A DNA stretch of 64,000 nucleotides from Alphaproteobacteria bacterium (lineage in GTDB: Bacteria > Pseudomonadota > Alphaproteobacteria > SP197), in NCBI GenBank assembly GCA_964291415.2, contig OZ219920.1, forward strand, positions 512,001-576,000, given 5' to 3'. Of the stretch, positions 1,606 to 37,755 are shown one piece after another; the first letter of the stretch is position 1, and each line of letters begins with the position of its first letter. A program made the translations under genes and the position numbers. A model generated the notes under the pieces. It saw nothing but the letters and a program-made list of their open reading frames with translations, ran no database searches and had not been told where the DNA came from.

Positions 1606-1736
1606 CACGCTCTCCCCGTTGTCGGGCAGGTCGCCGGCCGGAGGCGGAGGCCGGCGGAGGCGGGGTCGAGAGTGAACGGGACGGAGAGAGGTCCCGGGGA
1701 TTCCCTTTTCCGGTTTCGCCGGTATGCTCGGAGGAC

Positions 1737-2107: not shown

Positions 2108-2130
2108 GCCCGGAGAGTTCCGCCCCGGCC

Positions 2131-5075: not shown

Positions 5076-5078
5076 GGC

Positions 5079-9214: not shown

Positions 9215-9258
9215 CGGATTGTCCTCGGAGTGCAAATTCTTGTTGTCTGTCAATGGGT

Positions 9259-10676: not shown

Positions 10677-10680
10677 GGCT

Positions 10681-16413: not shown

Positions 16414-16414
16414 G

Positions 16415-18462: not shown

Positions 18463-19031
18463 TTGTCACTCTCCAGTTGCTCGAAGCGCAGGAGGCCGAT
18501 CCGTCCGGCGTCGATGCGGAAGACGAGCCGGTAGCGCCGGTCTTCGCGCGAGGACTCCTCGCGCCCGATCCAGGTCACCAGCTCGCCCGCGATCTCGACC
18601 GAAAGCCCTTCGGGATCGGCCTCGATTTCGGTGGGGTAGAAGGCGCTCGCCATGTCGCGCCCGGCCATGCGCGCCGCCTCGGCCTCGACCCAGGCGCCGA
18701 TCGCGCCGCGCGCCGAGGCGTGTGCGAGACGCGCCGCCGCAAGCCGCACATGGGCCGCGTTCTCGGGAGTGAGGGTGAGCAGCGTCACCGCGACGGTGCG
18801 CGCCATGTCCTCGAGATACCGCGCCCCCGCCGGGCCGATACCGACGCCGCTGCCGCCGACCTCCAGGGACGGCCCCGAGACCGCCGGCACCAGCACGGTG
18901 ACGGTCTCGCGCCCGGCGAAGCTCACCGTCAGCGCCAGGTTGGCGGTCATCGACAGCACCAGCAGCGCCGCCAGCGCGAGCCGGACGTCCCGCACCCGGC
19001 GGATGGCGGAGTCCATGTCGATGCGTCTCAT
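18459..19031 (-). CDS. traE: Pilus assembly protein TraE
   Basis: TM helix, TVLVP, YLEDMAR..LLTLTPEN, SAFYP, GELVTWIG. Confidence 0.88.
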   Translation of the reverse strand: MRRIDMDSAIRRVRDVRLALAALLVLSMTANLALTVSFAGRETVTVLVPAVSGPSLEVGGSGVGIGPAGARYLEDMARTVAVTLLTLTPENAAHVRLAAARLAHASARGAIGAWVEAEAARMAGRDMASAFYPTEIEADPEGLSVEIAGELVTWIGREESSREDRRYRLVFRIDAGRIGLLRFEQLESDK

Positions 19032-19041
19032 GCCGCCCGCC

Positions 19042-19335
19042 TCAGCCGACGAAGCGCCGGAGGTGGCTCGGCGGCGTCGCCTTGAGACGCAGCACGAAGT
19101 CCGGCAGGAACCAGTACAGCGCGTAGCGCGCGATGTTGGCCCCGCCGCCGCGCTTGACGCGCCGGAGCAGAAGCCAGCCGCCGACGCCGGCAATGAGCCC
19201 CGGCACGAACTGGTTCGCGGCCAGCCCGAGCAGGGCCGGGCCCATCAGCGCGGCCGCCTCGTCGACCGTCCAGAACAGCCAGCGCTCCGGATCGTCGAGC
19301 CGGCGCGGGATGGTGTGGCGGGCGGTGTCGTTCAC
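19042..19335 (-). CDS. traL: Pilus assembly protein TraL
   Basis: IPRRLDDPERWLFWTVDE..LYWFLP..TPPSHLRRFVG. Confidence 0.92.
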   Translation of the reverse strand: MNDTARHTIPRRLDDPERWLFWTVDEAAALMGPALLGLAANQFVPGLIAGVGGWLLLRRVKRGGGANIARYALYWFLPDFVLRLKATPPSHLRRFVG

Positions 19336-19345
19336 GATTGCCGCC

Positions 19346-19684
19346 TCAGACGATCGCCGTGCCGACCAGGCCGGTGACGATCCCGGTGCCGGCGCCCGCC
19401 GCGATGCCGACGCCGACCGCGCCCATGAGCTGCATGGCGTTGAAGCGCAGCACCGAGCCGACCAGCGCCGCGCCCACGGCGAGCGCGGCGGCGAGCTGGC
19501 CGCCGGTGCCGCCGACGATGTTCTCCACCGTGTCGAGCGGCGTGCCGAAGGTGGTGTCGGTGGTCGCCAGCGCCGCGTCCGTTCCGGCCAGCACGGCGGC
19601 AGCCGCCAGTGCCGCCAGCGCGGCGATGCGAAGCGCGTCGCCGGAGCGGTCCACGGCGGCCGCGGTCATCGCCCGCGCCCTCAT
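19346..19684 (-). CDS. traA: Conjugative pilin TraA-like
   Basis: Leader ending ALA, then two hydrophobic Gly/Ala-rich helices; directly upstream of traL. Confidence 0.75.
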   Translation of the reverse strand: MRARAMTAAAVDRSGDALRIAALAALAAAAVLAGTDAALATTDTTFGTPLDTVENIVGGTGGQLAAALAVGAALVGSVLRFNAMQLMGAVGVGIAAGAGTGIVTGLVGTAIV

Positions 19685-20406
19685 CGGTCGGCTCCCCCCG
19701 GAGCGCGGTCCGGGGCAGGCCCCGATGCGTCCGACCCGCCGCCGTCCGGCCGGGGCTCGTCCGCGGCCGGCACGCGCCGCTTCGCCGCCCAGGCGTCGAG
19801 GTCGTCGCGCCGGTAGACGATGCGCTGGCCGAAGCGGTGATAGGCCGGCCCGTCGCCGGTCTCGCGGTAGCGGTCGAGCGTGCGCGGGCTCAAGCCCAGC
19901 ACGGCCGCCGCCTTGCGCGTGCTCAAGTATTCGCCGTTGGCGTGGGTCATGTCGCAGTCTCCCTGTGGTGCGCCTCTGTCCACCTCGCCGAGCAGCGGCA
20001 CGCCCGCCACCGCCGCGCGCATCGCCGCGCGCGCCGGGGCCGACGCATGCCCCGCCATCCACCCCCGCACCCGCTCGACGGTGCCGAGCCGAAACGAGGC
20101 GCCCCGGCGCAGACGGTCGACGAAGGAGGGGTCGCCCGCCGCGAGCTCGCCGAACACGTAGGCCTTGGTGCCGCTGACGCGCAGGAACGCCTCGACCTCG
20201 CGCCGGAAGGCGGGGCCGACGGGCGCGAGGCCCATGAAGGCGAGGAGGCGGTCGACGGTCCTGAGCCCCGGACAGCGGCCCCGGTCGAGCGAGCCCATGA
20301 AGCAGGGGTCGCCCAGCGCCTCAATGCCGAAGCGCCGCGGGCCGGTGCCGGTCTCTTCGAGGAACGCGCCGAGAAGGGCGCGGAGCTGGCGGTCGAGGTG
20401 TGTCAT
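19681..20406 (-). CDS. Tandem Cro-like HTH domains in frame with an excisionase/AlpA-like HTH domain (possible internal start MTHANG at 19950)
   Basis: Two copies of AFL..G...FG..A.GDP.F...L.RG....L.TV; C-terminal YLSTRKAAAVLGLSPRTL..GDGPAYHRFG..Y...DLDAW. Confidence 0.75.
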   Translation of the reverse strand: MTHLDRQLRALLGAFLEETGTGPRRFGIEALGDPCFMGSLDRGRCPGLRTVDRLLAFMGLAPVGPAFRREVEAFLRVSGTKAYVFGELAAGDPSFVDRLRRGASFRLGTVERVRGWMAGHASAPARAAMRAAVAGVPLLGEVDRGAPQGDCDMTHANGEYLSTRKAAAVLGLSPRTLDRYRETGDGPAYHRFGQRIVYRRDDLDAWAAKRRVPAADEPRPDGGGSDASGPAPDRAPGGADR

Positions 20407-21218: not shown

Positions 21219-24200
21219 TCAGAACCGGGCTTCCAGCTTCAGCCGGACCCCGTGCTCGGGCTCCGTCCCGGCGTCGTTGGCGGGCTCCTTGCGCGTCGCC
21301 TCGATGCCGAGCTCGAACGAGGACGGCCCGCCCGGCACCAGCCCGAGCCGCCAGCCGAGCCGGTAGTCGCGCCCGGCGTCGGAGACGCCGATCCCGAGCT
21401 CCGGCGTCGACGTGAACCGGTCGCCGAACGCCGGGAGGCCGTAGCCGAGCTTCAGCTCCAGCCGGCGCGCCTCGAAGCCGTTGTCGTTGGCCGCGAGGTC
21501 GGCGAGCGTCTGGCGCCCGAGCAGCGCGTCGGCCCCGCCCGCGGCCTGCGCGCCCAGCGTCTGCGTCAGCGTGAGCGACGGCCCGCGGTCCGACGCCGGG
21601 TCCGGGTCCCAGGCGAGCGAGCCGGAGACGCCCCGGTCCTTGAGCCCCGCCGCCTCGTGGGCAACGAGCCCCCGTCCCGAGACCTCGGCCGAGAGCCCGA
21701 GCGCCGGGGCGTGCCAGCGCAGCCCGCCGCCGATATCGACGCCCCAGCCGGTCTCGGCGTCGCCGCCGTCATGGCGCAGACCGAGCTCGAAGGTGGGCTC
21801 CAGCGTGCCCCCGCCGTCGCCCGTCCCGGAACCCGATCCGGGAAGCGCGAAGGCGTAGCCGCCGTCGAGCCCGAGACGGAGCCGCGTCACGTCGGCCTCC
21901 GCCGCCGCCAGGCCCCGCGCCTTCTCCGAGGCGGTCCGCACCCAGAACGCGTCCGCCTCCAGGTCGAGCCGGAACCCGCTCCCGCCCGCCGGCTCGACGA
22001 GGTTGCCCCTGGCGCCGAGCGCCGCCATGCCGAGCGACATGTCGGTCTCCAGCGCCGGATCGTCCTCGCCCGTCTCCGGGTTCTTCGGGGTGAGCGTCAG
22101 CGTGCCCTCGCCGAGCCCCGCCGCGGCCCAGGCCCTGAGACGCGCGCTCACGTCAACCGCCGCATAGGGGTAGACCCCGGTGAGCGTGTTCTCGACTTTT
22201 CCTGAGCCGCCGTCGCCCGAATAGCTGCCCTCGCCGATGCTGTGCTTGACCATCGCGCCGAGCAGCCAGCGCCCGGTGCGCCAGTCGGCCCCGAGCGTCG
22301 CCGAGGTCACCTCGCCGTCGACGGTGAGCGGGCCGTCGCGCCCGCTGAACGACGACGACGCGCCCCGGCCCCAGAGCGCCACCGACGCCCCGCCGTCCTC
22401 CGGCGCCGCCGTCAGCGAGAACGCCGTCGAGGCCAGCACCTCGCGCCCCGTCATGCTCCGGTCCTTCGCGCGCGCCTCGTCGTCCCGCTCGTCGGTCCCC
22501 GCGAGCCACCGCCCGAGCCGCTCCGCGTCGCGCCGCGCCGCCGCGTCACCGACGAACCCCGCCGCGGCGGTTTCGTTGTCATTCGCCGCGCTCGCGCCCC
22601 GCCCGCCGCGGACCCCGAGGGCGCCCACGACGGCAGCGCCTGGCCGCCCAGCGTCGCCTGGCCGCCGGCCGCGCGCGGCGCGTCGAGCCGCGCGCCGACC
22701 GCGTCCACCACCTGCTCGGCCACGGTGCGCCCGAACCGCGCGAGCCACGCCTTCGGCATCTTGTCGGTGTTCCTGATCGTGCCCGTCGCCTCGAGATCGC
22801 CTGCCCGCGCGCCGACCACGTTCGAAAGCCGCAGCAGGAAGGTCTCGTGGCCCTCGTCGTGGCCGTCGTCGAGGATGGGCACCCGGACCGTCTTCGACGT
22901 CTCGCCCGCAACGAAGACGAGCGTGCCCGAGGTCGCCGTGTAGTCCTCGCCCGCCGTCGCCGTGCCGTCCGCCGTCGCGTAGCTCACCCGCACCCGGTGC
23001 CCGGACCCGTGAAGGCGCGGCTCAGGCTCACCTCGAACGCGACCGCCTCGTCCACGCCCTCGCGCGCCTCCGCGTCCGCCACCGAGAGCACCGGGCGCCA
23101 GTCGACCTTGTGCTTCGGGTCGTGGCCCAGCCCCGCGTGCCCGAGCGCCGCGTCCGCGCCCGTCGCCGCCGAGCGGATCGTCCCGCCGCCGAGCGCCAGC
23201 GTGTTCACCAGCACCGCGATGCCCTGCGGCGCGTAGTTGGGCTCCACCACCGTCCAGGCGAAGGTCAGCGCCAGCGTCGCCGTGCCGGTCGCGCCCTCGT
23301 ACACCGCCCGCTTCTCGCCCCAGCGCGGGTCCATCTTGATCGTGAGCCCGGGCGAGCCCGTCACCTCGACCGCCTCGCTGAAGGTGAGCCGCACCCGGAT
23401 CGTGTCGCCCAGGAGGTAGGTGTCGTCGCTGCCCGCATCCGAGACCACCGCCACCCCGGTCACCGAGGGCCGCCCCTCGGCCGGCGGCGCGAGCCGCCAG
23501 TCCACCCTGTGGGCCGCGTCGTGGCCGAGCCCCGCATGCGCAAGGCTCGCGTCCGACTGCGTCCCCGCCGACTTGATCGCGCCGCCGTTCGCCTCCAGCG
23601 TGTTGGCGAGCACCGCGATCCCGGTCGGGGCGGTGTTCGGCTCCACCACCGTGTAGGCGAAGGTCAGCGCCGCCGTGCCGCCGCCGCTCGCATAGCCCGC
23701 CCAGAACTCGCCCCAGCGCGGGTCCATCTTGATCTTCACCCGCGGCGAGCCCGTGACGTCGACCGCCCGGTCGAACGTCACCCGCACCCGGATCGTGTCG
23801 CCCAGGCCGTAGGTCCGGTCGCCGCCCGCGTCCGAGACCACCGCCACCCGGTGACCTTCGCCGGCGCCGCCCGCACCCCGGCGGACCCCGTCCCGCCGTG
23901 CGCGAGCGCCGCGGCCAGCCCGCCGCCCGCGCTCACGATCGACCCGCCGCCGAGGCTCAGGCTGTCCGCGACCACCCCGACCGCGCCGTGCCCGCCGTCG
24001 GCCCCTGCCAGGGTGTAGCCGAAGGTCAGCGCGGGCCCGCCGGAGCCCGCGCATACGCCGCGCGGCGCTCCACGCCCCCGAACGAGAGCGCCACCGAGGG
24101 CGCGCCCTCGACCGCGACCGGCTCGGCAAAGGTGAGCGTCACCGCCACCGTGTCGCCCGCGCCCCAGCCCCCGGCCGGCGCGTCCGGGACCGCCAGCCCC

Positions 24201-27200
24201 GTCACCCCCGGCGCCTCGCCGAAGGCGAGCGATGCCGCCGTGCCGCCCGCCGCGGCCGCGATCGCGCCGCCATTGAGCTTCAATCCCGACGCCGCCGCCC
24301 GCACCGAAGCGCCCAGGCTCCCGTCCGCCGCGACCGCCCGGTACGCGAACACGAGCCGCGCCGTCCCCGAGCCCGACACGTAGGCCGCCCGCCGGATTCC
24401 GTCATTCGCGATGAGCGCCAGCGTCGGCACGCCGCCTTCGGTGTCCACATCCACCGGCGCGTCGAACGTCACCGCCGCCTCGACCGTCTCGCCCTCGGTG
24501 TACGCGCCGTCCGCGCCCGCGTCCGACGTCACCTCGACCCCGGTCACCGCGACCGGGACCGGCGCGAGCCGCCAGTCCACCTTGTGCGCCGGGTCGTGCG
24601 GCAGCCCGGCATGCCCGAGCGCCACGGCCGCGCCGGTCGCCGCCGACGTGATCGTGCCGCCGTTCGTCTCCAGCGTGTCCGCCAGCACCGCGATGCCGGT
24701 CGGGGCGGTGTTCGGCTCCGCCACCCGGTAGGCGAAGGTCAGCGCGTTCGTGCCGGAGCCGCTCTCGTAGCCCGCCCGGAACGCGCCCCAGCGCGGGTCC
24801 ATCTTGATCGTCAGGCGCGGCGTCCCGCCGCCGGTGTCCACCTCGACCGCCTCGGCGAAGGTCACCTCCACCCGGATGGTCTCGCCGAGCGCGTAGGTGT
24901 CGTCGTCGCCCGCGTCCGAGACCACCGCCACGCCGGTCACCGAAGACCCCGTCCCGGTGACGTTGACCAGCTCGATCCGGACGTACAGCCCGGTGCCGGC
25001 GTCGCCGTCCGGCGCCAGCAGGTTCCCGGCGAGGTCACGGAACGACCCGTCGGCGCCGTCGGCGCGCCGGAAGTAGGTCAGCTTGTTGCGCTCCGTCAGG
25101 CCCGCCCGCGCCGGCGGACAGTACTTGCCCAGCCCGACCGTCACCGTCTCGCCGTCGACCGACACCGCGCCCGTGGCGGAGCAGCCGAGCGATGCCGTCT
25201 CCGAGGTCTGTATGCCCATCAGGAACCGGCCCCCGGTCGATGCCGGGTCCAGCGCCTCGCTGAAGGTGAGAGTCACCGTCCCGCCGTCGATCTCGCCCCG
25301 CAGCAGCCGGGGCGGCTCCCCATCCACCCTGTGCGCCGCGTCGGGCGCAAGACCCGGGTGGCCGAGCGCCGCGTCCGCCTGCCCGGCCGCGGTCCGGATC
25401 GTGCCGCCATCGAGCTCCAGCGTGTCCGCGAGCACCGCGACGCCGCCGCCGGACACATCGCCGGCGGCCACCGTGTAGGCGAAGGTCAGCGCGTTCGTGC
25501 CCGAGCCGCCCGCATACGCCGCCCAGCGCTCGCCGCCGTCGGCCGGGTCGAGGTCGAGCTTCAGGCGCGGCGTCCCGCCCGCCGTGCCCACGTCGACCGC
25601 CTCGGCGAAGGTGAGCCGCACCCGGATCTCGTCGCCGGCCGCGTAGGTTGCGTCCGCGCCCGGGTCGGAGACCACCGCCACCGCCTCGCCCGACGGCGCC
25701 GCGGGCGTTGCGTTCGCTGCCGCCTCGCCCGAGAAGGCCGCCGCCGCGTTGCCCGCGAGGTCGCGGACCGGGCCGTCCTCCGGCGGCGCGTAGGCCACCG
25801 TCACCGTCTCGCCGGCAAGGACCGCCCCGGCGAGCGTCACCGTCAGCGCCGCGCCGTCGACGCCCGCCGTGCCCGTGCCGGCGATCTCGCGCGCCGCGCC
25901 GTCGCCGAGCCGCGCCGTCGCCGTGAAGGCGCTTCCCGCCGGCGCCGGGTCCGCCTCCAGCGCCTCGCCGAAGGTCACCGTCAGCGCCGTGCCCGACACC
26001 GCCGCCGACGCGAACGCGGGCGCCGCCGTGTCCACCCGGTGGCCCGTGTCCGCCGCCACCGCCGGATGGGCGAGCGCCGCGTCGGCATCCGTCGCCGACG
26101 ACCTGATCGTGCCGCCGTCGAGCTCCAGCGTGTCCGCCACCACCGCGACGCCGTCCGCCGACATGTCGCCGGCGACCACCGTGTAGGCGAACGTGAGCAC
26201 CGTCCCGCCGCTGCCCGAGGCGTACGCCGCCCACCGCTCGCCCGCGCCGTCCCCGCCGCCGAGGTCGAGCTTGAGCCGCGGCGTCCCGCCTTCCGTGTCG
26301 ACGTCCACCGTCTCAGCGAAGGTGAGCGACACCCGGATCTCGTCGCCGGCCGCGTAGGTCTCGTCCGCGCCCGGGGCGGAGGCCACCGTCACCGCCTCGA
26401 CAGCCGGCGCCGCGGCCGGCGTCCCGACGGTCACCGGCAGGTCCACGACGTTCCCGAGCTGCTTGCCGTCGACGCTCCACAGCCCGACCTCGCCGAGCGG
26501 CCGCCGGTAGCTCACCGTCGCCGTCTCGCCCGGCGCGAACTCGCGGCTCAGCGTCAGCCGGAGCGCGCGCGGGTCGTCCGCCGGGAACGCCGTCCCCGTC
26601 ACCGTCACCGGCCCGCCCGACGCCGCGACCGTGAACCACTCCGGGCGCGCCTCCGAATGCGCCGCGAACGGCCGTTTCGCCCTCAGGATGACGCTGCCCG
26701 GCTCCGCCGAATCAAGTCCATCCGGATCGCAGTGATCCCACCGCTCGTTCTCCACCTCCACCGGGCCGAAGCTCTCCGCCTTCGTGCCCCAGAGGTTGCG
26801 CAGCGCGTTGCGCTCGGGCTCGGCATAGCTCACCATCACGTCGTCGCCGGAGTCCTCATGGCCGTCGCAGGGCTGCAGCGGCCTCCCCAGGCGCAACGCC
26901 ACCTCGGCGCCCTGCACCGTGACGGCGTTGACGCCGTGGTACACGTTCACGGAGAGCACGAACGCCTCGTTCCACGGTACCGTCGTCGGGTCCAGCAGCT
27001 CGTCGAAGGTGAACGTCAGCACCCTCCCGTTCGCCTCCGGCGGGTCGTGCTCGATCTCGTCTTCCAGATTGGTGTCCACGAGCGTCGGCCGACCCAGGTG
27101 GCCCGTCACACCCAGGTTTTCCATCAGTTGACGCGGAAAGCTGAAGTCCGCAGCTTCGTTGCCGGCCGGGTCCCGCAGCGGGGTCGCGCCCGCGTTCGCC

Positions 27201-30200
27201 TTGGTGTAGTCCACCGTCACCACCGCACCGGCGGCCGCCGCCGAAGCCAGGGTGAGGTAGACCGCGTTGCCCCGCACCTTCACCGCGTCGACCCCGCGGT
27301 CCGCGCCCGCCACCTCCACCGTGAAGGCCGCGGCCGCCGGCACCGAGCTCTCGTCCAGCGCCTCGTCGAAATAGAGCGTCAGGTCCGTCCCGGAGACGCT
27401 GCCGGAAGTCGCGCCCGGTCCGGTCCCGTCGAGCCACGCGGCCCGCCAGGCGCCGATGTCCGCCACCTCGCCGCCGGCCGCGCCGCGCAGCGGGCTGGCG
27501 TCGTCGCCCTTGTCGTAGCCTATCCACGCGACCCCGATGTCGTCGTCCAGCGCCTCCTCCAGCGTGACCACGACCGTCGCGCCCCGGACCTGCGCCCGGC
27601 CCGTGCCCCGAACGCGGTAGGACCCGTCGCCCGAATTGCCGTACACCTCGAACCGGCGCCCGGCCGGGCGCGACGCCGAGTCCAGCCCGCGATCGAAGAA
27701 CAGCGTGAGCGCGCGCCCCTCCACCGTCGCGCGCGCCAGTTTCGGCGGCGGACCGTCGATTCCCGTGGCGTTGAAGACCGGCCGGTTCTCCAGGTCCGCC
27801 ACCGGGTTGCCCGCCGCGTCCTGGAGCCGGTGCCAGGACGCGGCCCCCCCGTAGTCCAGCGTGACCGGCTGGCCGGGCGCCACCGCCGTGCCCAGGGTGA
27901 GCGTCACCGTCGGGCCGCTCAACGCCACCCGGTTGGGGGACTGGTTGACGATCGGGGTTCCCAGGTGGCGCCCGCCCTGGATGATGAACGCGTGGCGCAG
28001 CGCCCGCGCCGCCCTCTCCGCCTCGTCCGGCACCGCCAGGTCCTCGTCGAAGGTCAGCGTCAGCGTCTTGCCGCTCACCGACGCATCGACGAGCTCCGGC
28101 GGCCTGTTGTCCTCCCCCGCCGGCTCGGCGCCGTTCACCTTGTGGTCCGGGGCGGCGCCCAGCGCCCCGGTGCCGCGCGACGCGTTGCGGTCCTGCCCGT
28201 CCTTGAGCGTCGCTCCCCCGGTCAGGATCACCAGGTCGCCCGCCGCCGTGCGCAACGGGGCGATGCCGTCGCCGTCCATGTCCGCCTGCACGACCGTGTA
28301 CCGGAAATGCAGCGCGCGCGCCCGGCCGCTCGTCTCGCCGCCCGTCAGCAGGGACGCCGTCCGCGTCGTCCCGCCCACGTCGAGCTCCACCGCCATCTCC
28401 GCGCCGGCGGCCGACACGTCCCACAACACGTCCGCCGACCAGGTCACCTTCACCCGGATATGCTCGTTCCGTCCGTAGGTGTCGGCGGCGAGCGACGGCG
28501 CGGACTCGATCGCCACCGACAGGATCGTCGTCAGGGGCGCCGGCGTCGCGTTGGTCACGTCCGCGTTGGCGAAGCTGTCGCCTGGTTGGCCCGGGCGTCC
28601 CGGAGTGCGCCGCCGCCGGCCTGGGTCTTGTCGTAGCCCACGGTGACGGTCTGGCCGTAGGCGACCGCCGCGGCCAGGGTCAGCGTCACCGTCCGCCCGC
28701 TTACGGAGACGGCGCCGCTCGCCGCCAGCTCCGCCGCCGATTCGCCCGCCGTCACCGTGAAGGCGGCCTTCGCCGGCGCCGCCACGGTCTCGTCCAGCGC
28801 CTCGTCGAAGGAAATCGTCAGCACCGCGCCGTTCACCGACGCCGAGGCGAGCGCCGGGCCCGTCGTGTCCGCCCGGGTGGCGTTGGTCGCCGTCTGGGCC
28901 GCGAAGTCCGGCACCGGGTGCTTCGCGTTGTCCGAGTCCTGGAGCTTCGCGCCCGTCGCCGGCGCCGCATAGGCCACCGTCACCGTGTCGCCGGGCAGCA
29001 CCGCCGCGGCGAGAGCGAGCGTCACCGTCGAGCCGCCGACCGAGACCGGGTTGGTGGCCGCCAGGCTCAGCGTGCTCTCGGCCCCCGAGCGCGTCCCCTT
29101 CACCGTGAACGCGCTCCCCGCCGGCACCGCGCTCCCGTCCAGCGCCCCGTCGAAGGTCACGATCAGCACGTCCTCGTTCACCGTCGCAGACGAGAACGCC
29201 GGCGGCGTGTTGTTGGCCGCGGCCTTGTTGAACCCGACCACACGGTTGCCCGACAGGTCCCTGAGCTCCAACGCGGCGTCGGACGGCCGGGAGTAGTTCG
29301 CCCCCAGCTCCTGTCCGTGCCGAGCCGCCGTCGCAAAGGTCGCGGTCACGGTGCTCCCGGAGATCGACGCGCTGTCGGCAAACGTGGTGGCCAATTCGAA
29401 AAACCGTCCGAACGCGTCCGCCGGCACCGCCACGGTCTCGTCCAGGGGCTCGTCGAACGTGATGGTCATCTTCGTCCCGTTCACCGTCGCCGAGACGAAC
29501 GAAGGCGGTGTCGAGTCGGTGGTGTTGTTGGTCGCCGTCTTGGCCGAGAAGTCCGGCACCGGGTGCTGCGCGTTGTCCGCGTCCTGGAGCTTGTCGCCGG
29601 TCGCCGGCGCCGCGTAGGCCACCGTCACCGTGTCGACGGGCAGCACCGCCTCGGCCAGGGTGAGCGTCACCTCGAGCCGCTGATTGAGACCGGGTTCGTG
29701 GCCGCCAGGCTCAGCGTGCTCTCGGTCCCCGAGCGCGTCCCCTTCACCGTGAACGCGCTCCCCGCCGGCACCGCGGCCTCATCCAGGCCCCCGTTGAAGG
29801 TGACGGTCAGCGCCGCCCCGTTCACCTTCGCCGACGAGAACGCCGGCGGCGTCACGTTGGGCAGGTTGTTATTGAACGTCCCCTGCGGCACCAGGTTGCC
29901 AGACAGGTCCTTCAGCGCGTTCGCCGAGTTCAAGTCCTGCGGCCCGACATAGGACGCACCGCAAGCGCACTCGCCGATGTGGCGTACCGCCGTCGCCAAG
30001 GTCACGGTCACGGTGTCGCCGGAAATCGAGACCCCCGACGAACGAATGGGGTTGACGAAGTCGTTGCCCCTTACGATCTGAAACATACTCGCCACCGCCG
30101 CTGGCGGCAGCACGCTCTCGTCCAGCGCTTCGTCGAAGACCACCGTCATCGTCGCCCCGTTGATCGACGCCGACACGAACGAGGGCGGTGTCGTGTCCGC

Positions 30201-33200
30201 CGGCGTGTCGTTGGTCGCGGTCTGGGCGGAGAAGTCCGGCACCGGGTGGTTCGCGTTGTCCGAGTCCTGGAGCTTGTCGCCGGTCGCAGGCGCCGCGTAG
30301 GCCACCGTCACCGTGTCGATGCGCAGCACCGCCTCGGCCAGGGTGAGCGTCACCTCGTCGCCGCTGACGGAGACCGGGTTCGTGGCCGCCAGGCTCAGCG
30401 TGCTCTCGGTCCCCGAGCGCGTCCCCTTCACCGTGAACGCGCTCCCCGCCGGCACCGCGCTCCCGTCCAGCGCCCCGTCGAAGGTGACGGTCAGCTCATC
30501 GCCGTCCACCGTCGCGGACGAGAACGCCGGCGGCGTGTTGTTGGTCACGGCCTCCGTTGAACACCACGGGCGCCTCGTTGCCGGCAAGGTCCTTGAGCCG
30601 CTTGGTGGCGTCGTCCGACTGCGCGTACCCACCCTCGCCCTCTGCCCGTGCAGGGCCGCCGTCGCGAAGGTCAGGGTCACGGTGCGCCCGGAGATGGAAC
30701 GAGCCGGTGGGAGCCTCGCCCAAGCCGTCGAGGGCGCGCGAAAACTTGGCAGTTATCGAGCGACACGCTCTCGTCCAGCGCCTCGTCGAAGGTCACCGTC
30801 ATCGTCGTCCCGTTCGCCGACGCCGACACGAACGAAGGCTCCGTCGTGTCCGCCGGGGTGGCGTTGGTCGCCGTCTGGGCGGAGAAGCCCGGCACCGGGA
30901 GCTTCGCGTTGTCCGAGTCCTGCAGCTTGTTGCCCGTCGCCGGCGCCGCGTAGGCCACCGTCACCGTGTCGGCGCGCCAGCACCGCCTCGGCCAGGGTGA
31001 GCGTCACCTCGGAGCCGCTGACGGCGACCGGGTTCGTGGCCGCCAGGCTCAGCGTGCTCTCGGTCCCCGAGCGCGTCCCCTTCACCGTGAACGCGCTCCC
31101 CGCCGGCACCGCGTCCTCGTCCAGCGCCCCGTCGAAGGTGACGGTCAGCGCCGAGCCGTTCACCTTCGCCGACGAATACGCCGGCGGCGTGTTGTTGGTC
31201 AGGTTGTTAGCGAACGTCCCCTGCGGCACCAGGTTGCCAGCCAAGTCCTTCAGCGCGTTCGCCGAGTTCAAGTCCTGCGGCCCGACATAGGACGCCCGCA
31301 AGCGCACTCCGATGTGGCGTACCGCCGTCGCCAAGGTCACGGTCACGGTGTCGCCGGAAATCGAGACCCCCGACGAACGAATGGGGTTGACGAAGTCGTT
31401 GCCCCTTACGATCTGAAACATACTCGCCACCGCCGCTGGCGGCAGCACGCTCTCGTCCAGCGCTTCATTGAAGACCACCGTCATCTTCGCCCCGTTGATC
31501 GAGGCCGAGACGAACGAGGGCGGTGTCGTGTCCGCCGGCGTGTCGTTGGTCGCCGTCTGGGCGGAGAAGTCCGGCACCGGGTGGTTCGCGTTGTCCGAGT
31601 CCTGGAGCTTGTCGCCGGTCGCAGGCGCCGCGTAGGCCACCGTCACCGTGTCGATGCGCAGCACCGCCTCGGCCAGGGTGAGCGTCACCTCGTCGCCGCT
31701 GACGGAGACCGGGTTCGTGGCCGCCAGGCTCAGCGTGCTCTCGGTCCCCGAGCGCGTCCCCTTCACCGTGAACGCGCTCCCCGCCGGCACCGCGCTCCCG
31801 TCCAGCGCCCCGTCGAAGGTGACGGTCAGCTCATCGCCGTCCACCGTCGCGGACGAGAACGCCGGCGGGGTGACGTTGGTCGCGGTCGCGGCGAGCAAGG
31901 TGAAGTTGAGGCCGTCCGGCACGGCGATCGCGTTACCCGACTGGTCCGCGAGCCGGTCGGCCGCCGTGTTCGATTGATGGTAGCGAAGTAGCCCCACGCT
32001 CTCGCCATGGCCCGGTGCGTCGGCCGCGGCGAACGTCGCCGTCGCCGTCGCGCCGGAGATCGACACGCCCGTCGAGTCGTGCGCACTGCCGCCATGGGTC
32101 ACGCTGAACCGGTTGTTCGACACGTTCCCCGACGCGCCGGCGGCCGCCAGCGTCTCGTCGAAGACCACCGTCAGCGTCGTGCCGTTCATCGACGCCGAGA
32201 CGAACGTCGGACCCGTGGTATCCGCCGCGGTGTCGTTGGTCGCCGTCTTCGTGTCGCCGAAGCCCGTCACCGGGAGCTTCAGGTTGTCCGCGTCCTGGAG
32301 CTTGGCGCCGGTCGCAGGCACCGCGTAGGCCACCGTCACCGTGTCGGTGCGCAGCACCGCCTCGGCCAGGGTGAGCGTCACCGCCGAGCCGCTGATTGAG
32401 ACCGGGTTGGTGGCCGCCAGGCTCAGCGTGCTCTCGGTCCCCGAGCGCGTCGCCTTCACCGTGAACGCGCTCCCCGCCGGCACCGCGTCCTCGTCAAGCG
32501 CCCCATTGAAGGTGATGGTCAGCGCCGAGCCGTTCACCTTCGCCGACGAATACGCCGGCGGCGTGTTGTTGGTCAGGTTGTTAGCGAACGTCCCCTGCGG
32601 CACCAGGTTGCCAGCCAAGTCCTTGAGCGCGTTCGCCGAGTTCAAGTCCTGCGGCCCGACATAGGACGCCCGCAAGCGCACTCCGATGTGGCGTACCGCC
32701 GTCGCCAAGGTCACGGTCACGGTGTCGCCGGAAATCGAGACCCCCGACGAACGAATGGGGTTGACGAAGTCGTTGCCCCTTACGATCTGAAACATACTCG
32801 CCACCGCCGCTGGCGGCAGCACGCTCTCGTCCAGCGCTTCATTGAAGACCACCGTCATCTTCGCCCCGTTGATCGAGGCCGAGACGAACGAGGGCGGTGT
32901 CGTGTCCCCGGCGTTGCCCGCCGGCCGGTCGGCGAAACTCGGCAGCTCGTTGTTGGAGCTGTCCTTCAGCACATTGCCGCTGGCCGGCTTGTCGTAGCGC
33001 ACCGTCAGCCGCTCGTCCGCGGCCACCGCCGCGCTCAGCGTCGCCGTCACCGTCTTGTCCGAAATCCCGACCAGCGCGCCCGTGCCGGCGATGGTGCGGA
33101 TCGAGCCCGATTTCGAGGCGGTCACCGTGAACGCGCTGCCCGCGGGCTTCGAATTCGTGTCCAGCGCCGTGTCGAAGGTGACGCTCAGCTTGGTGCCGTC

Positions 33201-34112
33201 CACCGTCGCGCTCTTCACCCGCGACGGGAGCACCGTGACCGTCACCGTGTCCTCCTCGGACGACGTCCCGTCATTGACGGTCAGCGTGAAGGTCAGGTCG
33301 GTCTGCATGCTCACCGACGGCGCGATGAACGCCGGCGTCGCCGAACTCGCGTCGTCCAGCATCACCGTCGGCCCGGCCGTCTGCGACCACGCGTAGGTCA
33401 GCCTTGCGGGCCTCGAGCCCGTGCCGTCCAGCGCCACACGCGCCCCGGCACGGACCGTCAGGTCGTCACCCGCGTCGGCCGATAGGCTCAATGCCTCCAG
33501 TCTCGCCTGGGCGATGTCGCCAGCCCACACTCCGTTGTGGCGACTTCGCATTTCCACGCCCACCGTCCAGGTGACGCCGGTCTCCAGGCCGGTCAGCGTG
33601 AACGAGCGTGTTTGGGCGTTGGTTATCTGGCGGACCGGTCTCTCCACGTTCCCGGTGCTCTGTTTCTTTGCGTGGATGTGCCACCGGACGAAGTTCCCTT
33701 GGGGGCCCGTGGTGGCCGGCTCCCAGCGCAACGTGATCTCCCCGACGCCTGGTCCCGGCTCGGCGGTGCCCGTCGGCGCGTCTGCGCAGTTTGGGCAGCT
33801 GGTGCGGTCCAATCCCAGCTTCAGATGCACATGACCCTCAGCCCCTTCGTCATGCGCCTGGGCCGCCCCGGCGCCGAGCAGCAGGGGGAGGACGAGGGCG
33901 GCGGCGAGCGCGCAGGCGGACGCCCGCCAGGCGCGGGCCAGGCGGGCGGGCCGGAAGCCGGAAGGAGGGGGAGAGCGGGAGTGGCGCGCAGGGTCCGCCG
34001 GACGGCGGCGCCCGAGGCTCAGCCGGCCAGGGCGCTCCCGCAGGCGGGCCGGAGCCCGTCCCGAACCTGTCGCAGAGCCCGTCCCGAGCCTGTCGAGGGA
34101 GGCGCCGCCCAC
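21219..34112 (-). CDS. Giant autotransporter adhesin (~4300 aa if the frames are joined): signal peptide, FN3-like, PKD-like, many SwmB-like repeats, Calx-beta, C-terminal beta-barrel
   Basis: Consecutive minus-strand ORFs join at mid-domain. LLLGAGAAQA signal; ADAGDD..YAWSQTAGP; repeated ATVDG..LTLTFDEALD..L.D.AGN; YATADGTATAGEDY; barrel ending LKLEARF. Confidence 0.85.
23095..26410 (-). repeat. About 6-7 diverged ~120-aa repeats inside the adhesin
   Basis: Recurrent VVSDAG.D.TY..GD.IRV..TF.EAV.V..PRL....W..Y.SGSG...LTFAY.V..GIAVLA.TL...GG.I..GL.HD..HKVD. Confidence 0.85.
28550..32905 (-). repeat. Near-identical intragenic repeat array: six constant domains alternating with variable domains
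   Basis: GSAFTVKGTRSGTESTLSLAATNPV block occurs six times; MFQIVRGNDFVNPIRSSG block occurs three times (near 32780, 31400, 30070) with near-identical DNA. Confidence 0.92.
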
Positions 34113-34146
34113 GGCGTCAGCCGCCGCCGGCGTGCGGACGCAGGAG

Positions 34147-34236
34147 CGGCTCGGCTCGGCTCGGCTCGGCTCGGCTCGGCTCGGCTCGGCTCGGCTCGGC
34201 TCGGCTCGGCTCGGCTCGGCTCGGCTCGGCTCGGCT
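34147..34236. repeat. Perfect pentanucleotide SSR (CGGCT)18
   Basis: 90 bp of uninterrupted CGGCT directly 5' of the adhesin ORF. Confidence 0.97.
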
Positions 34237-34408
34237 TAATCAGGCGGAGCAATTCTCTACCTGCCACACTGCTGCGGGCATACGGACACCTCCCGCCCGG
34301 CGGTACCAGGCGCCGACGCGTTGCATTCCGGTGCACCGATCTGCAACGGCGTCTGGACTTCACCGGCGATTTCGAAAACTTTAGAGGAGGCCCAAAACCC
34401 CCGTAAAT

Positions 34409-34424
34409 CCTGCCATTTGGGAGG
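34409..34424. promoter_or_regulatory. Palindromic box copy 1 (upstream of adhesin)
   Basis: CCTGCCATTTGGGAGG; one mismatch to copy 2. Confidence 0.65.
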
Positions 34425-34515
34425 TATCGAAAGCCCGCCCGAAGCCCGGTCAGGGCGGCGGGAGAAGGGGAGCAGGGGGAGCGCCGGCTGTCGCCGGCGG
34501 ACCCTCGGCGGGCCG

Positions 34516-35661
34516 TCAGCGCCGGGGCAGGGCGTCCACCGCCAGGACCTGGCGCACCAGCTCGACCTGCCCCGACACGCCCAGCTTCCGATAGGCCTGC
34601 TTGGTCAGCCAGCGCGCATAGTCCTCCGACCATCCCGCCGCCGCGGCGATCTCGTTCACCTTCTGGCCCTCGGCCAGCAGCGCCGCCGTCCGGCCTTCCG
34701 ATGGCGACAGGCCGAGCGTCACCGCCACCCGCTGGGCGTCGATGCGCGAACGCCGCGCCGGGTCGACCACCAGCACCAGCGCCGCCACTCGGCGCCCGCC
34801 GAAGTCCGTCGCCCCGTCGCCCACCGGGGTGACGTGGAGCGCCAGCCGCGAGCGGCCCGAGGAACGCTGGACCGTCATCGAGCCGCCGGACGGCGCCTCG
34901 CCCCACAGGTCCGGCAGCGCGCGCCCGAGCAGCCGCCGCAGCCGGCTGCGGTCCGCCGGCAGCCAGGCGTCGAGCGCGCCGTCGCGGTCGATGAGCCCGT
35001 CGCCGCGGCGCAGGATCTCCGCCGCCGGCGCGTTGGCCTCCAGCACCCGCCCGCCGCGGTCGAGCTGCACCACGCCGATGCGGCCGTTGTCCAGCAGGCC
35101 CTCAAGGCCCGACCCCAGGGCTTCCGCCGCCGCCAGCGCCTGGCGGACGCGCACGAACTGGCGGATATGCGGCAGCAGGGACTCCAGGAATTCCACCCGA
35201 TCGGCGTTCCAGCCCTCGCCGTCGCCGGGGTCCCCGACACCCCAGACCACGCTCAGGCCGTCCTGCCAGTCGAGGCGCGTGATGAGTCCGTTCCGGCCGC
35301 CGCGGGCGGACCATCCCTCGTTGTACGCCGCCGACGTCTTCAGCTCCCTCTCGGTGTACATGTCGGGGACGTGGACCAGCGCGCCGACCGGCCACCCCCA
35401 GAGGCGCGGCGGCCCTTCGTCGTGGGGCTGGTAGACCTCGAAATACTCGCGCGCCAGGTCGTGGCGCGTCTCGCCCCGGTAGAGCAGCCGGGCGAAGTAG
35501 ACACGCACCTCGTCGCCGGACCTCTCGCCGACCGCCAGCACGTTGCCCGTGGCGCCGCAGGCCTCTTCGATCTGGGCGGCGGCGCCAGGCCAGCGGGTGT
35601 CGTCGAGGGCGGCCTCATGCAGCGCCGCGAGGATGCGCCCGAAGGCGTCGTCCGGGTTCAC
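34516..35661 (-). CDS. LuxR-family transcriptional regulator (GAF-like N-terminus, PAS, C-terminal HTH)
   Basis: C-terminal GLSPSEGRTAALLAEG..EIA..KQAYRKLGVSGQVELV; GVVQLDRGGRVLEAN PAS-like segment; GTG start chosen by inspection. Confidence 0.88.
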   Translation of the reverse strand: MNPDDAFGRILAALHEAALDDTRWPGAAAQIEEACGATGNVLAVGERSGDEVRVYFARLLYRGETRHDLAREYFEVYQPHDEGPPRLWGWPVGALVHVPDMYTERELKTSAAYNEGWSARGGRNGLITRLDWQDGLSVVWGVGDPGDGEGWNADRVEFLESLLPHIRQFVRVRQALAAAEALGSGLEGLLDNGRIGVVQLDRGGRVLEANAPAAEILRRGDGLIDRDGALDAWLPADRSRLRRLLGRALPDLWGEAPSGGSMTVQRSSGRSRLALHVTPVGDGATDFGGRRVAALVLVVDPARRSRIDAQRVAVTLGLSPSEGRTAALLAEGQKVNEIAAAAGWSEDYARWLTKQAYRKLGVSGQVELVRQVLAVDALPRR

Positions 35662-35824
35662 GCCGCGGCGCTCCGGCGACGCGTCGCCGCCGGTCCCCGC
35701 CGAACACCGATTTGCCCAACAACGACGCCGCTGCGCATCATTCTCCCCCGGCCGCCGGATCGCACGGCCACCCTTCCGATGCGCCGTCCGGCGAAATCTA
35801 TGGGAGATCGGCCAGCCCAACCAT

Positions 35825-35840
35825 CCTCCCATTTGGGAGG
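35825..35840. promoter_or_regulatory. Palindromic box copy 2 (upstream of LuxR-type gene)
   Basis: CCTCCCA-TT-TGGGAGG inverted repeat; flanking bases also match copy 1. Confidence 0.65.
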
Positions 35841-36489
35841 TTTCGTGAAAATTGCGGGTCGAGAATCATCCTCCGTTTCACGATTTTCCGCCCCCGGACC
35901 GACGGTCGTTCCGCTCGCGCCCGTCACCCGCCGTGCACGATTCGCGCTGTCGAAACACCGCCGTCGACCGCGGGATCGAAGACGCGGCCGGGCGGCCCGG
36001 AAGGACCGCCGCGGCCATGGCGGCCCGCCGGCAATGCGTCGGGACGCCCGTGGAGTCCCGGCCGCAGACCCGCCTGTCGCGGCGCGGCGCAAGCTCCGGG
36101 GTCGCCTGCCGAGCGCGCTCGACAGCGCGCCGCCGCCGGTCATATGCTCATTGTCCGTCACCCGGGATTTGGACAGCGAGACCGGCGGCGACAGGACCAG
36201 GGCGAACCCGGCAGGGCATTGCGTGCCGCCTCTTCTTCGTGACCGTTTCCGGCGGCGTGCCTCCCCGGCTCAGACCGGCAGGTCCGGGCATCTTCCCGGG
36301 CAGGCCGCCTGCGGCGCGGCGCCGACGCCAGCCCGTTTGCAGACACCCTTTCCGGAGGCCGGCTCATGAGTTTGCCCCCCATCGCCCCCGGCGCGGTTGC
36401 CGGATCCGGCCGGCGCAGCCGATGCGACGGGCGACCGTCGTGATCGCGTCGGCGCGCGCGGCGCCATCGCCCGGCGGCAGGGCCCTGCG

Positions 36490-37755
<1,266 letters not shown>

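Follow-up and report, generated by a model that had tools for sequence, protein, structure and literature searches.

In Neisseria, the Opa genes carry CTCTT pentamer repeats in the coding region of the leader peptide. In Haemophilus influenzae, 7-bp repeats lie upstream of hmwA of the HMW1 and HMW2 adhesins and have been reported to grade transcription. To our knowledge, almost all known cases of repeat-driven phase variation come from cultured pathogens, and we know of no SwmB-type protein described as an autotransporter or as repeat-switched. Among the literature entries surveyed on sponge and other uncultured symbionts, none described phase variation or a regulator-adhesin unit of the present kind.

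Here, we analyzed a stretch of 64,000 nucleotides (the window) from an alphaproteobacterium, in which an earlier note had seen a conjugative element carrying a doubly controlled giant adhesin. Sequence comparison indicates that the locus is a unit of a sensor-type regulator, a DNA box, a 5-base repeat and a giant adhesin gene, which recurs in uncultured bacteria of several phyla. The overall reading of the earlier note is partly supported: the module is akin to known phase-variable adhesin systems and has new features. The module, given in window coordinates, comprises the following features.

35840-35825, minus strand: regulator-side box CCTCCCAAATGGGAGG, with a -10-like TAGATT at a fixed distance (35800-35795)
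34516..35661, minus strand: regulator of 381 aa, with two PAS/GAF-like modules and a predicted C-terminal LuxR/GerE-type HTH
34424-34409, minus strand: adhesin-side box CCTCCCAAATGGCAGG, in the same orientation as the regulator-side box
34407-34378, minus strand: putative adhesin promoter, with a -35-like TTTACG (34407-34402), an 18-nt spacer and a -10-like TAAAGT (34383-34378)
34240..34281, minus strand: small upstream ORF, with Shine-Dalgarno GGGAGG, 7 nt and ATG (34281-34279)
34147..34236, minus strand: (AGCCG)x18 simple-sequence repeat, 100% perfect, in the adhesin leader
34110..34119, minus strand: adhesin-start junction TGA-CGCC-GTG, with TGA at 34119-34117, then 4 nt, then GTG at 34112-34110
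34112..21219, minus strand: giant adhesin, about 4,297 codons long, whose domains are SWM_repeat, Big_5, fn3 and a predicted terminal barrel
21222..22454, minus strand: predicted C-terminal outer-membrane beta-barrel ending in ...EARF, identified by alignment, AF2 model and PDB fold matches

The regulator starts at a GTG at 35661; an ATG at 35832, inside the box, was rejected as the start. Its HTH scores 17.4 bits with GerE (PF00196), under the cutoff of 23.5; PF00196 is assigned to some close homologues, and GerE is found in 33-66% of the members of the Atlas look-alike clusters. The AF2 model (pLDDT 80) contains two alpha/beta sensor modules and an HTH, with a four-helix C-terminal module at residues 309-376. 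Its fold matches are phytochrome PAS-GAF, EL222, VqmA and the LasR/CviR ligand domains, with low global TM-scores of 0.2-0.3. A search for the autoinducer-binding domain PF03472 at E<=10 returned none, only weak PAS_8 and PAS_4, and an NCBIfam search gave no match. The LuxR-type gene that had been proposed is present, but not as an AHL-type protein; it carries two PAS/GAF-like modules, and the LasR/CviR ligand domains are only distant fold matches. The closest homologues, P0001 and P0002, are 93% and 89% identical, and their contigs are left out of the comparison set described below.

The same palindrome lies upstream of both the regulator and the adhesin in the same orientation, as had been claimed. 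With up to 3 mismatches, the box gave 6 strand-matches in the window versus 0.43 expected, a number that none of 100 shuffles reached. A third box-like site at 61519-61534, with 3 mismatches and without the TTTACA geometry, was treated as a chance occurrence. In variants such as TCTCCCAAATGGGAGA and CCTTCAATATTGAAGG, a change in one arm of the box is mirrored in the other. The arrangement box-TTTACA-N16-TAnnnT is kept in 13 of 15 alphaproteobacterial-type leaders, and the geometry of box and -10-like hexamer on the regulator side in 7 of the 9 loci tested. A scan of 34050-36000 for strict sigma-70 promoters and terminators found neither, and Rfam at gathering scores gave no match. With two PAS/GAF-like modules in the regulator, the signal-dependent transcription of the earlier note is plausible.

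The claim of an autotransporter of about 13 kb was borne out in part, in that about 12.9 kb of SWM-repeat coding sequence ends in a beta-barrel, but the sequence is split into at least 7 ORFs by no fewer than 10 frameshifts, which all fall within about 30975-22600. The window adhesin is therefore not the continuous polypeptide of a type Va autotransporter, whereas its homologues in related loci are single ORFs, the intact ones ranging from 1014 to more than 3209 aa. Its layout is an N-terminal extension, a signal-peptide-like segment (...ACALAAALVLPLLLGAGAAQA, judged by eye), fn3, about 16 or more SWM/Ig-like repeats, a Calx-beta-like segment and the C-terminal barrel. The long repeats within it are 96-97% identical and able in principle to recombine, which agrees with the recombinational domain variation suggested earlier. 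Seven homologues of the barrel segment, drawn from six loci, align with it at 33-49% identity. The window segment has no Pfam match even at E<=10 and no NCBIfam match, while the homologue of locus L013, 44% identical to it, matches PF03797 with 31.8 bits (cutoff 26). The AF2 model of the barrel is all-beta with moderate confidence (pLDDT 69) and about 20 predicted strands over about 410 aa; its best PDB matches are the beta-domains of BrkA, EspP, Hbp and NalP (target-normalised TM 0.54-0.60). The product is probably an autotransporter-like protein of about 4,300 residues with Ig-like repeats, for host or surface attachment. The barrel model seems to exceed the 12 strands of the classical autotransporter barrel.

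A pentanucleotide tract at the 5' end of the adhesin is indeed present as a perfect (AGCCG)x18, but it sits in the leader, outside the adhesin ORF. The 15-mer of the tract was observed 16 times versus 0.10 expected, and none of 100 shuffles reached 16. It is a long, perfect, non-triplet tandem repeat in the leader of a surface-protein gene, as in contingency loci, and the repeat is free of stop codons in every frame. In the window, the 14 nt ahead of the adhesin's GTG contain no Shine-Dalgarno sequence, and the upstream ORF is halted by a premature TGA (34242-34240) directly before the tract; without this TGA, it would run through the tract to the conserved TGA. Stops close two frames just ahead of the tract and the third frame has no Shine-Dalgarno start, and there is no start codon in either the coupled or the fused frame. 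The arrangement of Opa, a repeat inside an ORF and after its start, is thus not found in the window; it is found in L015, L016 and L006.

To place these features, we used 37 related loci fetched by the regulator with 10 kb on each side (regulators 52-78% identical); the loci are related by descent, and counts among them are not independent events. They span many phyla and include MAGs of Alphaproteobacteria, Acidobacteria, Ca. Entotheonella, Chloroflexota and Gammaproteobacteria. With a threshold of up to 2 mismatches to the 14-nt core, a box lies just after the regulator gene in 15 of the 37 loci and upstream of it in 12. A co-oriented, large, repeat-rich surface-protein gene follows in 15 of the 37, with SWM, fn3, Calx-beta, PKD, He_PIG, cadherin or LRR repeats, and the adhesin barrel is found in 7 loci. 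Perfect tracts of 5- or 7-nt units in 8-19 copies occupy the same leader position in 7 of the 37; L037 has a 4-copy tract and L006 a 2-copy remnant. Copy number ranges from 2 to 19 between loci of different genomes, and in 9 leaders every unit is 5 or 7 nt long, with none of 3 or 6 nt. The co-occurrence of regulator family, box, short non-triplet tracts and large secreted proteins, which the earlier note had proposed as a check, was therefore observed in related loci.

The leaders also share the junction at the adhesin start. TGA-N4-ATG/GTG is present in 8 of 9, the exception being L001 with an ATGA overlap; the start ATG or GTG is kept in all 9, none of which has a Shine-Dalgarno sequence in the preceding 14 nt. 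An upstream ORF with a Shine-Dalgarno sequence terminates at the conserved TGA in L003, L013 and L037; in L009 and L001 it stops at TGA or ATGA without a clear Shine-Dalgarno sequence; and in L015, L016 and L006 it is fused in frame to the adhesin. Overrun of the start was found in none of 8 loci. The T of the conserved TGA is invariant, although in these genes only 1.6-6.9% of Ala codons are GCT and 2.6-8.9% of Gly codons are GGT. L002 lacks a tract, and its adhesin starts at the homologous Shine-Dalgarno-ATG itself. The stochastic switching that had been proposed would probably work otherwise than by a simple frameshift within the gene, because the tract lies in the leader ahead of the adhesin ORF.

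A type IV secretion system and its repressor, as claimed, are both present on one side of the module, and two further genes lie on the other.

1..20406, minus strand: F-type (MPF_F) conjugation genes, identified with Pfam and by tblastn with the tra proteins of plasmid NZ_CP011771.1
20480..21169, plus strand, divergent from the tra operon: LexA/CI-like S24 repressor (Pfam PF00717 and NCBIfam S24 regulator matches)
36397..37755, plus strand, divergent from the regulator: cytochrome P450 gene, also a neighbour in L015, L009 and L003 at 67-81% identity
37844..38224, minus strand, upstream of the module: small HTH_17 (AlpA/excisionase-like) gene, also a neighbour in L013 and L037

The genes traD (cut by the window edge), traG, traH, traF, traN, trbC, traU, ssb, traW, an S26 peptidase gene, trbI, traC, traV, traB, traK, traE, traL and an HTH_17 gene (19681-20406) constitute the MPF_F set of an F-type conjugative element. 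The Pfam families found over 1-20406 are TrwB/TraD, TraG_N, TraH, TraF, TraN, TrbC, TraU, TraW, TrbI, TraC, TraV, TraB/TrbI, TraK, TraE, S26 peptidase and HTH_17. Against a plasmid database, the matches of this region were all short, at 71-87% identity, and fell on sphingomonad plasmids, and the adhesin, regulator and P450 region (21200-38300) gave no match and no close annotated relative. The S24 part of the repressor is 83% identical to an intact 230-aa ORF of L013, with three out-of-register matches; its HTH and S24 parts lie in different frames (2 frame changes, three GC3 frames). The relaxase and the left end of the element are absent because the window begins inside traD, and the att sites and element boundaries lie beyond the 64 kb. 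A tRNA scan of the window found none. The GC drop at about 38.9 kb was rejected as an element boundary, as GC returns to about 0.70-0.74 at about 41.6 kb, marking a low-GC insert with no clean end. A tyrosine recombinase gene lies at 62978-63928.

The order of L013 is that of the window: HTH_17, regulator, adhesin, S24 repressor and first tra-operon gene. The adjacency to the repressor and the tra operon is thus repeated, but the module is also found without conjugation genes beside it. Its neighbours in Acidobacteria MAGs are bacA on one side and an isocitrate/isopropylmalate dehydrogenase gene on the other, and in L015 and L009 the regulator-box-adhesin unit adjoins an integrase and a P450; in all of these, no T4SS genes were found within 10 kb on each side. 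The module is thus not specifically a conjugation accessory.

Taken together, we give roughly even weight to a reading, drawn from sequence, in which the locus would be a transferable surface module with two control layers, box-dependent transcription and repeat-driven translational coupling. In the first layer, a regulator dimer would bind the 7-2-7 palindrome abutting a weak promoter, and, with one box at the regulator gene and one at the adhesin gene, both would be transcribed depending on input to the sensor modules. In the second layer, as comparison of the leaders suggests, the adhesin start would have no ribosome-binding site and lie 4 nt past the stop of a small ORF, while this upstream ORF, with a strong ribosome-binding site, would hold the hypermutable 5-nt (elsewhere 7-nt) repeat. 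Repeat slippage would shift the frame of the upstream ORF, with three outcomes: in the ON state, ribosomes would halt at the adhesin start and re-initiate; in the fusion state, they would enter the adhesin frame; and in the OFF state, they would pass the adhesin start in the wrong frame. Here, the module adjoins the repressor end of an F-type conjugative element. Tentatively, and with more doubt than confidence, we consider that it may represent a cassette not described before, a "regulated contingency adhesin" that spreads horizontally in uncultured bacteria, probably ones associated with hosts, with sensor-activated box promoters and a three-state translational gate.

The same leaders could also be read as an Opa-like in-frame switch, in which translation really begins at the upstream Shine-Dalgarno-ATG and passes through the tract as part of a long N-terminal extension, with only the fused frame ON. 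The in-frame fusion of L015, L016 and L006 fits this as well as it fits coupling, the homologous Shine-Dalgarno-ATG of L002 (MAAIPVG...) is directly the signal-peptide start, and the repeat is stop-free in all frames. However, the upstream ORF ends unfused, exactly at TGA or ATGA, in 5 of the 8 informative loci, all 9 leaders keep the ATG or GTG, and the T of the TGA never varies despite the rare codon it makes; moreover, fusion would put more than 100 residues ahead of the hydrophobic signal core. We therefore consider such a switch unlikely. A rheostat, in which repeat number alters promoter spacing, mRNA stability or structure rather than frame, is distinctly unlikely: the position of the tract between putative promoter and start codon would suit it, as would AT-rich hexamers directly before several tracts (such as TATAAT in L001), but all units in the 9 leaders are 5 or 7 nt and never 3 or 6, and a spacing mechanism would not need the conserved downstream stop and start or the upstream Shine-Dalgarno-ATG. 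We give little probability to the palindrome being, rather than an operator, an RNA hairpin, a terminator, or a site at which a small box-regulator-box cassette recombines or ends. Boxes do lie on both sides of the regulator gene, L013 has a tandem second, shortened box-to-box copy, a short T run follows the downstream box, and the symmetric arm changes fit a hairpin too; yet the recurrent downstream GGCAGG places a mismatch in mid-stem in the window, L001, L006, L013 and L015, the upstream copies lack a T run while keeping a -10-like hexamer at a fixed distance, and no terminator was called in 34050-36000. The box also accompanies a co-oriented downstream gene, L029 having both box and PKD gene and L030 neither.

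Whichever way the leader works, the adhesin might serve mating-pair aggregation of the conjugative element rather than host or surface colonisation. Its adjacency to the T4SS in the window and L013 would agree with this role, which is nevertheless improbable given the units elsewhere without T4SS genes within 10 kb on each side and the passenger domains of Ig, fn3, cadherin, LRR and Calx types. It is a serious prospect, somewhat short of an even chance, that the conjugative element and the adhesin are a dead relic of decaying pseudogenes from which nothing is expressed or switched. About 19 frame changes fall within 1-30980 (at least 10 in the adhesin, at least 7 in the T4SS and 2 in the repressor), those in the T4SS being internal to traG (at least 3), traC (2), traN (1) and traU (1), where tblastn matches are split over frames. 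Together with the premature TGA in the upstream ORF, they favor decay, and about 15 kb of coding sequence to the right has no frameshift. Homopolymer density was rejected as the cause of this left/right difference, since it is equal on both sides and errors driven by density alone would not explain the asymmetry. In contrast, every break is a 1-nt indel, 20 T4SS matches are free of nonsense codons, the 31 adhesin matches contain a single stop, in a frame-shifted patch, the GC3 coding signal is fully retained and the 18-copy tract is still perfect; the breaks occur only where GC exceeds about 72%, as expected of composition-dependent consensus errors. The frameshifts are either consensus errors or real decay, and the switch and adhesin gene of the window copy look disabled.

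In the related loci, phase-variation logic appears in uncultured environmental or symbiotic bacteria, across phyla and tied to a dedicated sensor-regulator, and the surface proteins that go with it are built from eukaryote-like adhesion domains. If coupling through the upstream ORF is true, it would be a compact way to join a signal-dependent and a stochastic layer on one gene and would offer a handle on how the surface of such bacteria changes inside a host. Annotators can recognise the module by its leader repeat, its non-standard start and its box; the regulator start is easily mis-called into the box, and the frameshifts of the window copy warn against calling the element functional.

Among known systems, Neisseria Opa is alike in that the gene of an outer-membrane adhesin carries a perfect pentanucleotide repeat at its 5' end, where slippage is expected to shift the frame. 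Here, however, the tract precedes the conserved start, in a separate small ORF whose stop abuts that start, and the gene is an autotransporter-like one of about 13 kb under a dedicated regulator. HMW1/HMW2 likewise have heptanucleotide repeats ahead of a very large adhesin gene, and several related loci use 7-nt units, but the conserved Shine-Dalgarno-ATG, TGA and ATG here point to translation. The PAS-LuxR regulators VqmA and EL222, both among the fold matches, combine sensor module(s) with a following GerE/LuxR HTH, whereas the window regulator has two PAS/GAF-like modules in 381 aa and a global TM of only 0.2-0.3 to them. The gene set and order of the conjugation region match the tra operon of Croceicoccus plasmid p1, as in F-type (MPF_F) plasmids and ICEs, but at the nucleotide level no more than a few percent of the query aligns, with identity reaching only some 71-75%, and several of the transfer genes are frameshifted. 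SwmB-type proteins of marine Synechococcus share the repeat family (SWM_repeat, TIGR02059). Type Va autotransporters (BrkA, EspP, Hbp, NalP and AIDA-I) resemble the adhesin in having a signal-like segment at the N terminus, a long passenger of repeats and, as predicted here, a barrel at the C terminus whose last residue is aromatic, and provide its best structural matches; the window protein differs in a barrel of about 410 aa with about 20 predicted strands that misses PF03797, and in a passenger of SWM/Ig-like repeats rather than a beta-helix.

The window holds every part from which the earlier note had assembled a mobile conjugative element carrying a signal-dependent, ON/OFF-switched giant adhesin. 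The T4SS, the S24 repressor, the adhesin coding region, the pentanucleotide tract, the regulator and the palindrome pair (the "box") all lie where that note had placed them, and both box and tract stand far above chance expectation.

1-20406, minus strand: F-type conjugation operon (Pfam; alignment with a Croceicoccus MPF_F plasmid)
20480-21169, divergent from the conjugation operon: Peptidase_S24 (LexA/CI-like) gene (Pfam)
34112 down to 21219, minus strand: giant repeat-protein (adhesin) coding region, with a signal-peptide-like segment, fn3, many SWM_repeat/Big_5 units and a C-terminal domain ending ...EARF
21222-22454: barrel domain, the C-terminal 411 residues of the adhesin (homologue alignment and model)
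34147-34236: perfect (AGCCG)x18 tract, upstream of the adhesin
34409-34424: 16-nt palindrome, adhesin side
34516-35661: regulator gene, between the two palindromes
35825-35840: palindrome, regulator side, 1 base different from the 34409-34424 copy
36397-37755: cytochrome P450 gene, divergent neighbour of the regulator

The conjugation operon matches TrwB/TraD, TraG_N, TraH, TraF, TraN, TrbC, TraU, SSB, TraW, S26 peptidase, TrbI, TraC, TraV, TraB/TrbI, TraK, TraE and an HTH_17 protein in Pfam. The tra proteins of the Croceicoccus plasmid align with it collinearly, and nucleotide similarity to every plasmid in the plasmid collection was short and weak. GC content is 72-77% left of ~29 kb and 54-69% right of ~39 kb. 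A low-GC insert (39000-41550, 45-60% GC) with a TIR-domain gene (39344-40096) and a DUF2971 gene (40208-41086) is possibly a defence islet. Farther right lie an apparently intact IS21-type pair (IstA 501 aa, IstB 271 aa) and IS630/DDE_3 transposase (43072-45389 and 47681-48700), and a PIN-domain gene, an AbiEi/AbiEii toxin-antitoxin pair and a Fic-domain gene (53756-54184, 57205-59920). A third, weaker box-like palindrome (61519-61534; 3 mismatches, no promoter-like geometry) is probably due to chance.

The regulator is predicted to be a one-component sensor-regulator of the LuxR HTH class and not an AHL receptor. Its own sequence gave only sub-threshold matches to PAS_8, PAS_4 and GerE, no NCBIfam match and, in the domain search, no match to an autoinducer-binding domain. 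The LuxR-type placement therefore rests on its relatives and its model: PF00196 is precomputed on close homologues, and the look-alike clusters found with a language model bear LuxR or CsgD/PAS regulator names. Moreover, an AlphaFold model (40 sequences, pLDDT 80) contains alpha/beta sensor modules at ~1-145 and 190-300 and a four-helix module at 309-376, with phytochrome PAS-GAF cores, EL222, VqmA and the ligand domains of LasR, TraR and CviR as best PDB matches, all at low global TM-scores. The family comprises 335 clusters at E<=1e-30. Among ~120 listed relatives a length of 380-381 aa prevails, and alignment begins at the GTG at 35661, which ruled out the ATG inside the box (longest ORF) as the start.

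A contig profile search with the regulator alignment, taking 10 kb flanks, returned 37 related loci (L001-L037), all from MAGs, whose regulators are 52-78% identical to the window protein. They belong to Alphaproteobacteria, Rhodobacteraceae/Paracoccaceae, Thalassobaculaceae, Vicinamibacterales, Holophagales, Thermoanaerobaculia, Ca. Entotheonella, Chloroflexota and one gammaproteobacterium; marine sponges are a typical habitat for several of them. Counted as a 14-nt core with <=2 mismatches, the box occurs 50-245 nt past the regulator stop in 15 of the 37 loci and 100-240 nt ahead of the regulator start in 12; admitting looser variants brings the downstream total to ~23-25. Variants alter both arms jointly, as in TCTCCCAAATGGGAGA (Acidobacteria MAGs), CCTTCAATATTGAAGG (L037) and CCTCCACTATTGGAGG (L002). 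A co-oriented downstream gene with SWM, fn3, Calx-beta, PKD, He_PIG, cadherin or LRR repeats follows in 15/37 loci, a count in which L004, L014, L018, L033 and L035 offer <2 kb of sequence 3' of the regulator gene and L007 ~3.1 kb. These proteins range from 383 to >3209 aa, the long ones each encoded by one ORF. In L036 the repeat-protein gene lies across from a truncated regulator, on its other side. Perfect 5- or 7-nt repeats occur 250-400 nt past the regulator stop in seven loci (AGCCG x10.8 and x9.2; AGCCGAG x8.4 to x19.1; GAGCGCC x9.7). Besides these seven, L037 has a tract of 4 copies and L006 retains a 2-copy remnant. Thus the regulator family, the box, the repeat tract and large surface proteins co-occur elsewhere, in several phyla, contrary to the lack of co-occurrence that the earlier note had named as a refutation.

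In other loci the downstream neighbour is a transposase gene (L010), a gene for a PAS histidine kinase (L012), a LysR gene, a lipid A acyltransferase gene or a convergent housekeeping gene. Box presence goes with a co-oriented target gene: in L029 the regulator gene is separated from an isocitrate/isopropylmalate dehydrogenase gene by a box and a gene for a PKD protein, and L030, with the same flanks, has neither. Box and adhesin gene can also be separated: in L010 the DDE transposase (12032-13297) and in L008 ~2 kb of other sequence (11300-13190) are inserted after the box, ahead of any adhesin gene. L013 contains tandem box-to-box copies (6323-7428 and 9768-11225) with identical box variants, the first shorter and bearing a 252-aa ORF without a Pfam match, a pattern that points to duplication or to recombination at the boxes. 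In L013, a single ORF (3577-5706) lying a few kb upstream of the module combines GPP34 (Golgi phosphoprotein 3) and P450 domains; GPP34 has reportedly been linked to sponge symbiosis in one published study (PMC11706023).

Alignment of the leaders revealed a shared architecture. After the box come (T)TTACA, a spacer of 16 nt (18 in the window) and TAnnnT in 13 of 15 alphaproteobacterial-type leaders, and a TAGnTT-like hexamer lies at the equivalent distance from the regulator-side box in 7/9 loci. A strict promoter scan of 34050-36000 found no promoter, which fits an activator-dependent promoter and is not evidence for one. A small inverted repeat (CGCCGG-CAG-CCGGCG type; window ~34495-34512) directly 3' of the regulator stop is kept in most alphaproteobacterial-type loci. 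About 100-150 nt beyond the promoter-like hexamers, a strong Shine-Dalgarno and an ATG open a small upstream ORF (MGSIPV... in several loci, MPAAVW... in the window), followed by the tract. A TGA-N4-ATG/GTG motif lies 34-66 nt past the tract in 8/9 leaders, L001 having an ATGA overlap. This ATG/GTG, which no Shine-Dalgarno precedes in the leaders compared, starts a conserved N-terminal extension (MGRA...RER..R...) and then a hydrophobic signal segment. In the window, a 23-nt direct duplication (34052-34095; 1.9 copies, 95% identity) makes the extension longer than in L009.

We prefer the reading that repeat number gates translational coupling between the upstream ORF and the adhesin start. Read in the adhesin frame, the T making the TGA occupies the third position of a GCT or GGT codon; it is invariant although, in these genes, GCT makes up 1.6-6.9% of Ala codons and GGT 2.6-8.9% of Gly codons, which points to selection on the stop itself. 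An upstream ORF with a Shine-Dalgarno traverses the tract and stops at the conserved TGA in L003, L013 and L037. The ORF of L009, from a GTG or TTG without a clear Shine-Dalgarno, ends at the same stop, and in L001 the frame runs open from an ATG without a Shine-Dalgarno through the tract to the ATGA overlap. The main rival is a plain in-frame Opa-like switch; in L015, L016 and L006 the upstream ORF is fused in frame with the adhesin. The third frame, in which the upstream ORF would overrun the adhesin start, is used in 0/8 loci. A rheostat set by leader length is a weaker rival to coupling.

The adhesin C-terminus is called autotransporter-like from homology and modelling. Six loci supplied seven homologous segments for its alignment, which end in an aromatic residue save for two truncated ones, and the domain was found again in 7 loci at 30-44% identity. 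PF03797 passes for one homologue and gives no passing match in the window barrel. The all-beta model (pLDDT 69) best matches the BrkA, EspP, Hbp and NalP translocators. At ~410 aa with ~20 predicted strands in this moderate-confidence model, the barrel exceeds the classical 12-strand autotransporter barrel in length, apparently with more strands. The passenger has 16 copies of a ~340-nt unit, with higher-order repeats 96-97% identical over 300 nt. The near-identical repeats behind the proposed recombinational domain variation thus exist and would suffice for recombination; expansion and contraction themselves are plausible from sequence.

The window copy may be dead or mis-assembled. Its upstream ORF (ATG 34281-34279) is stopped by a TGA (34242-34240) directly before the tract, a TAA (34238-34236) closes the adhesin frame upstream of the start, and the sole open frame into the tract is the third, overrunning one, without a Shine-Dalgarno. 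The adhesin changes frame at ~30975, 30730, 30640, 30565, 29685, 28585, 24050, 23850, 23010 and 22600, by 1-nt gains or losses where a sister repeat permits comparison. Frame changes also interrupt traG (3), traC (2), traN (1), traU (1) and the S24 repressor (2). None was seen right of ~30980, where the initial 3.1 kb of the adhesin are followed by the regulator, P450, IS21, IS630, an adenylate/guanylate cyclase, an MFS transporter, AbiE, Fic and the integrase. A sequencing or consensus artefact would account for breaks that consist of indels only, all in sequence above ~72% GC, with the coding signal intact, no nonsense codon within 20 T4SS matches and one stop among 31 adhesin matches, itself in a shifted patch. 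The sharp left/right contrast despite equal homopolymer density, and the stop in the upstream ORF, argue instead for real decay, to which we give a substantial but minority probability.

The adhesin may lie within the conjugative element. The L013 order matches that of the window (HTH_17, regulator, adhesin, S24 repressor at 83% identity, first tra-operon gene at 56%), the block from adhesin to HTH_17 (37844-38224) shares its high GC with the T4SS, and a tyrosine integrase directly follows the P450 gene in L015 and L009; these points are in favour. Within the window, no tRNA and no clean compositional edge were seen, and the left end falls inside traD. A tyrosine recombinase (Phage_integrase, SAM-like N-terminal domain; 62978-63928) stands near the right edge, with no link to the T4SS element evident. 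The P450 is the divergent regulator neighbour in four genomes (the window, L015 8209-9723, L009 7802-9097 and L003 689-2380; 67-81% identical), and one may speculate that its product makes or modifies the regulator ligand. The regulator-P450 gap in the window is unusually long (~0.7-0.8 kb). In Acidobacteria MAGs the regulator is flanked by bacA and a dehydrogenase gene, so the regulator-adhesin unit appears to move on more than one kind of vehicle, which weakens the suggested role in mating aggregation.

Taken together, the real interest lies at the family level and less in the window copy. In the full-text literature, as far as the texts seen extend, we found no description of the regulator-box-tract-adhesin unit, of its cross-phylum spread, or of a repeat carried by an upstream ORF with its stop right next to a Shine-Dalgarno-less start. 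Pentamer switching is known from Opa, and heptamer repeats from hmw. The logic here is similar, and it is joined to a putative PAS-LuxR one-component regulator and an autotransporter-like giant adhesin.
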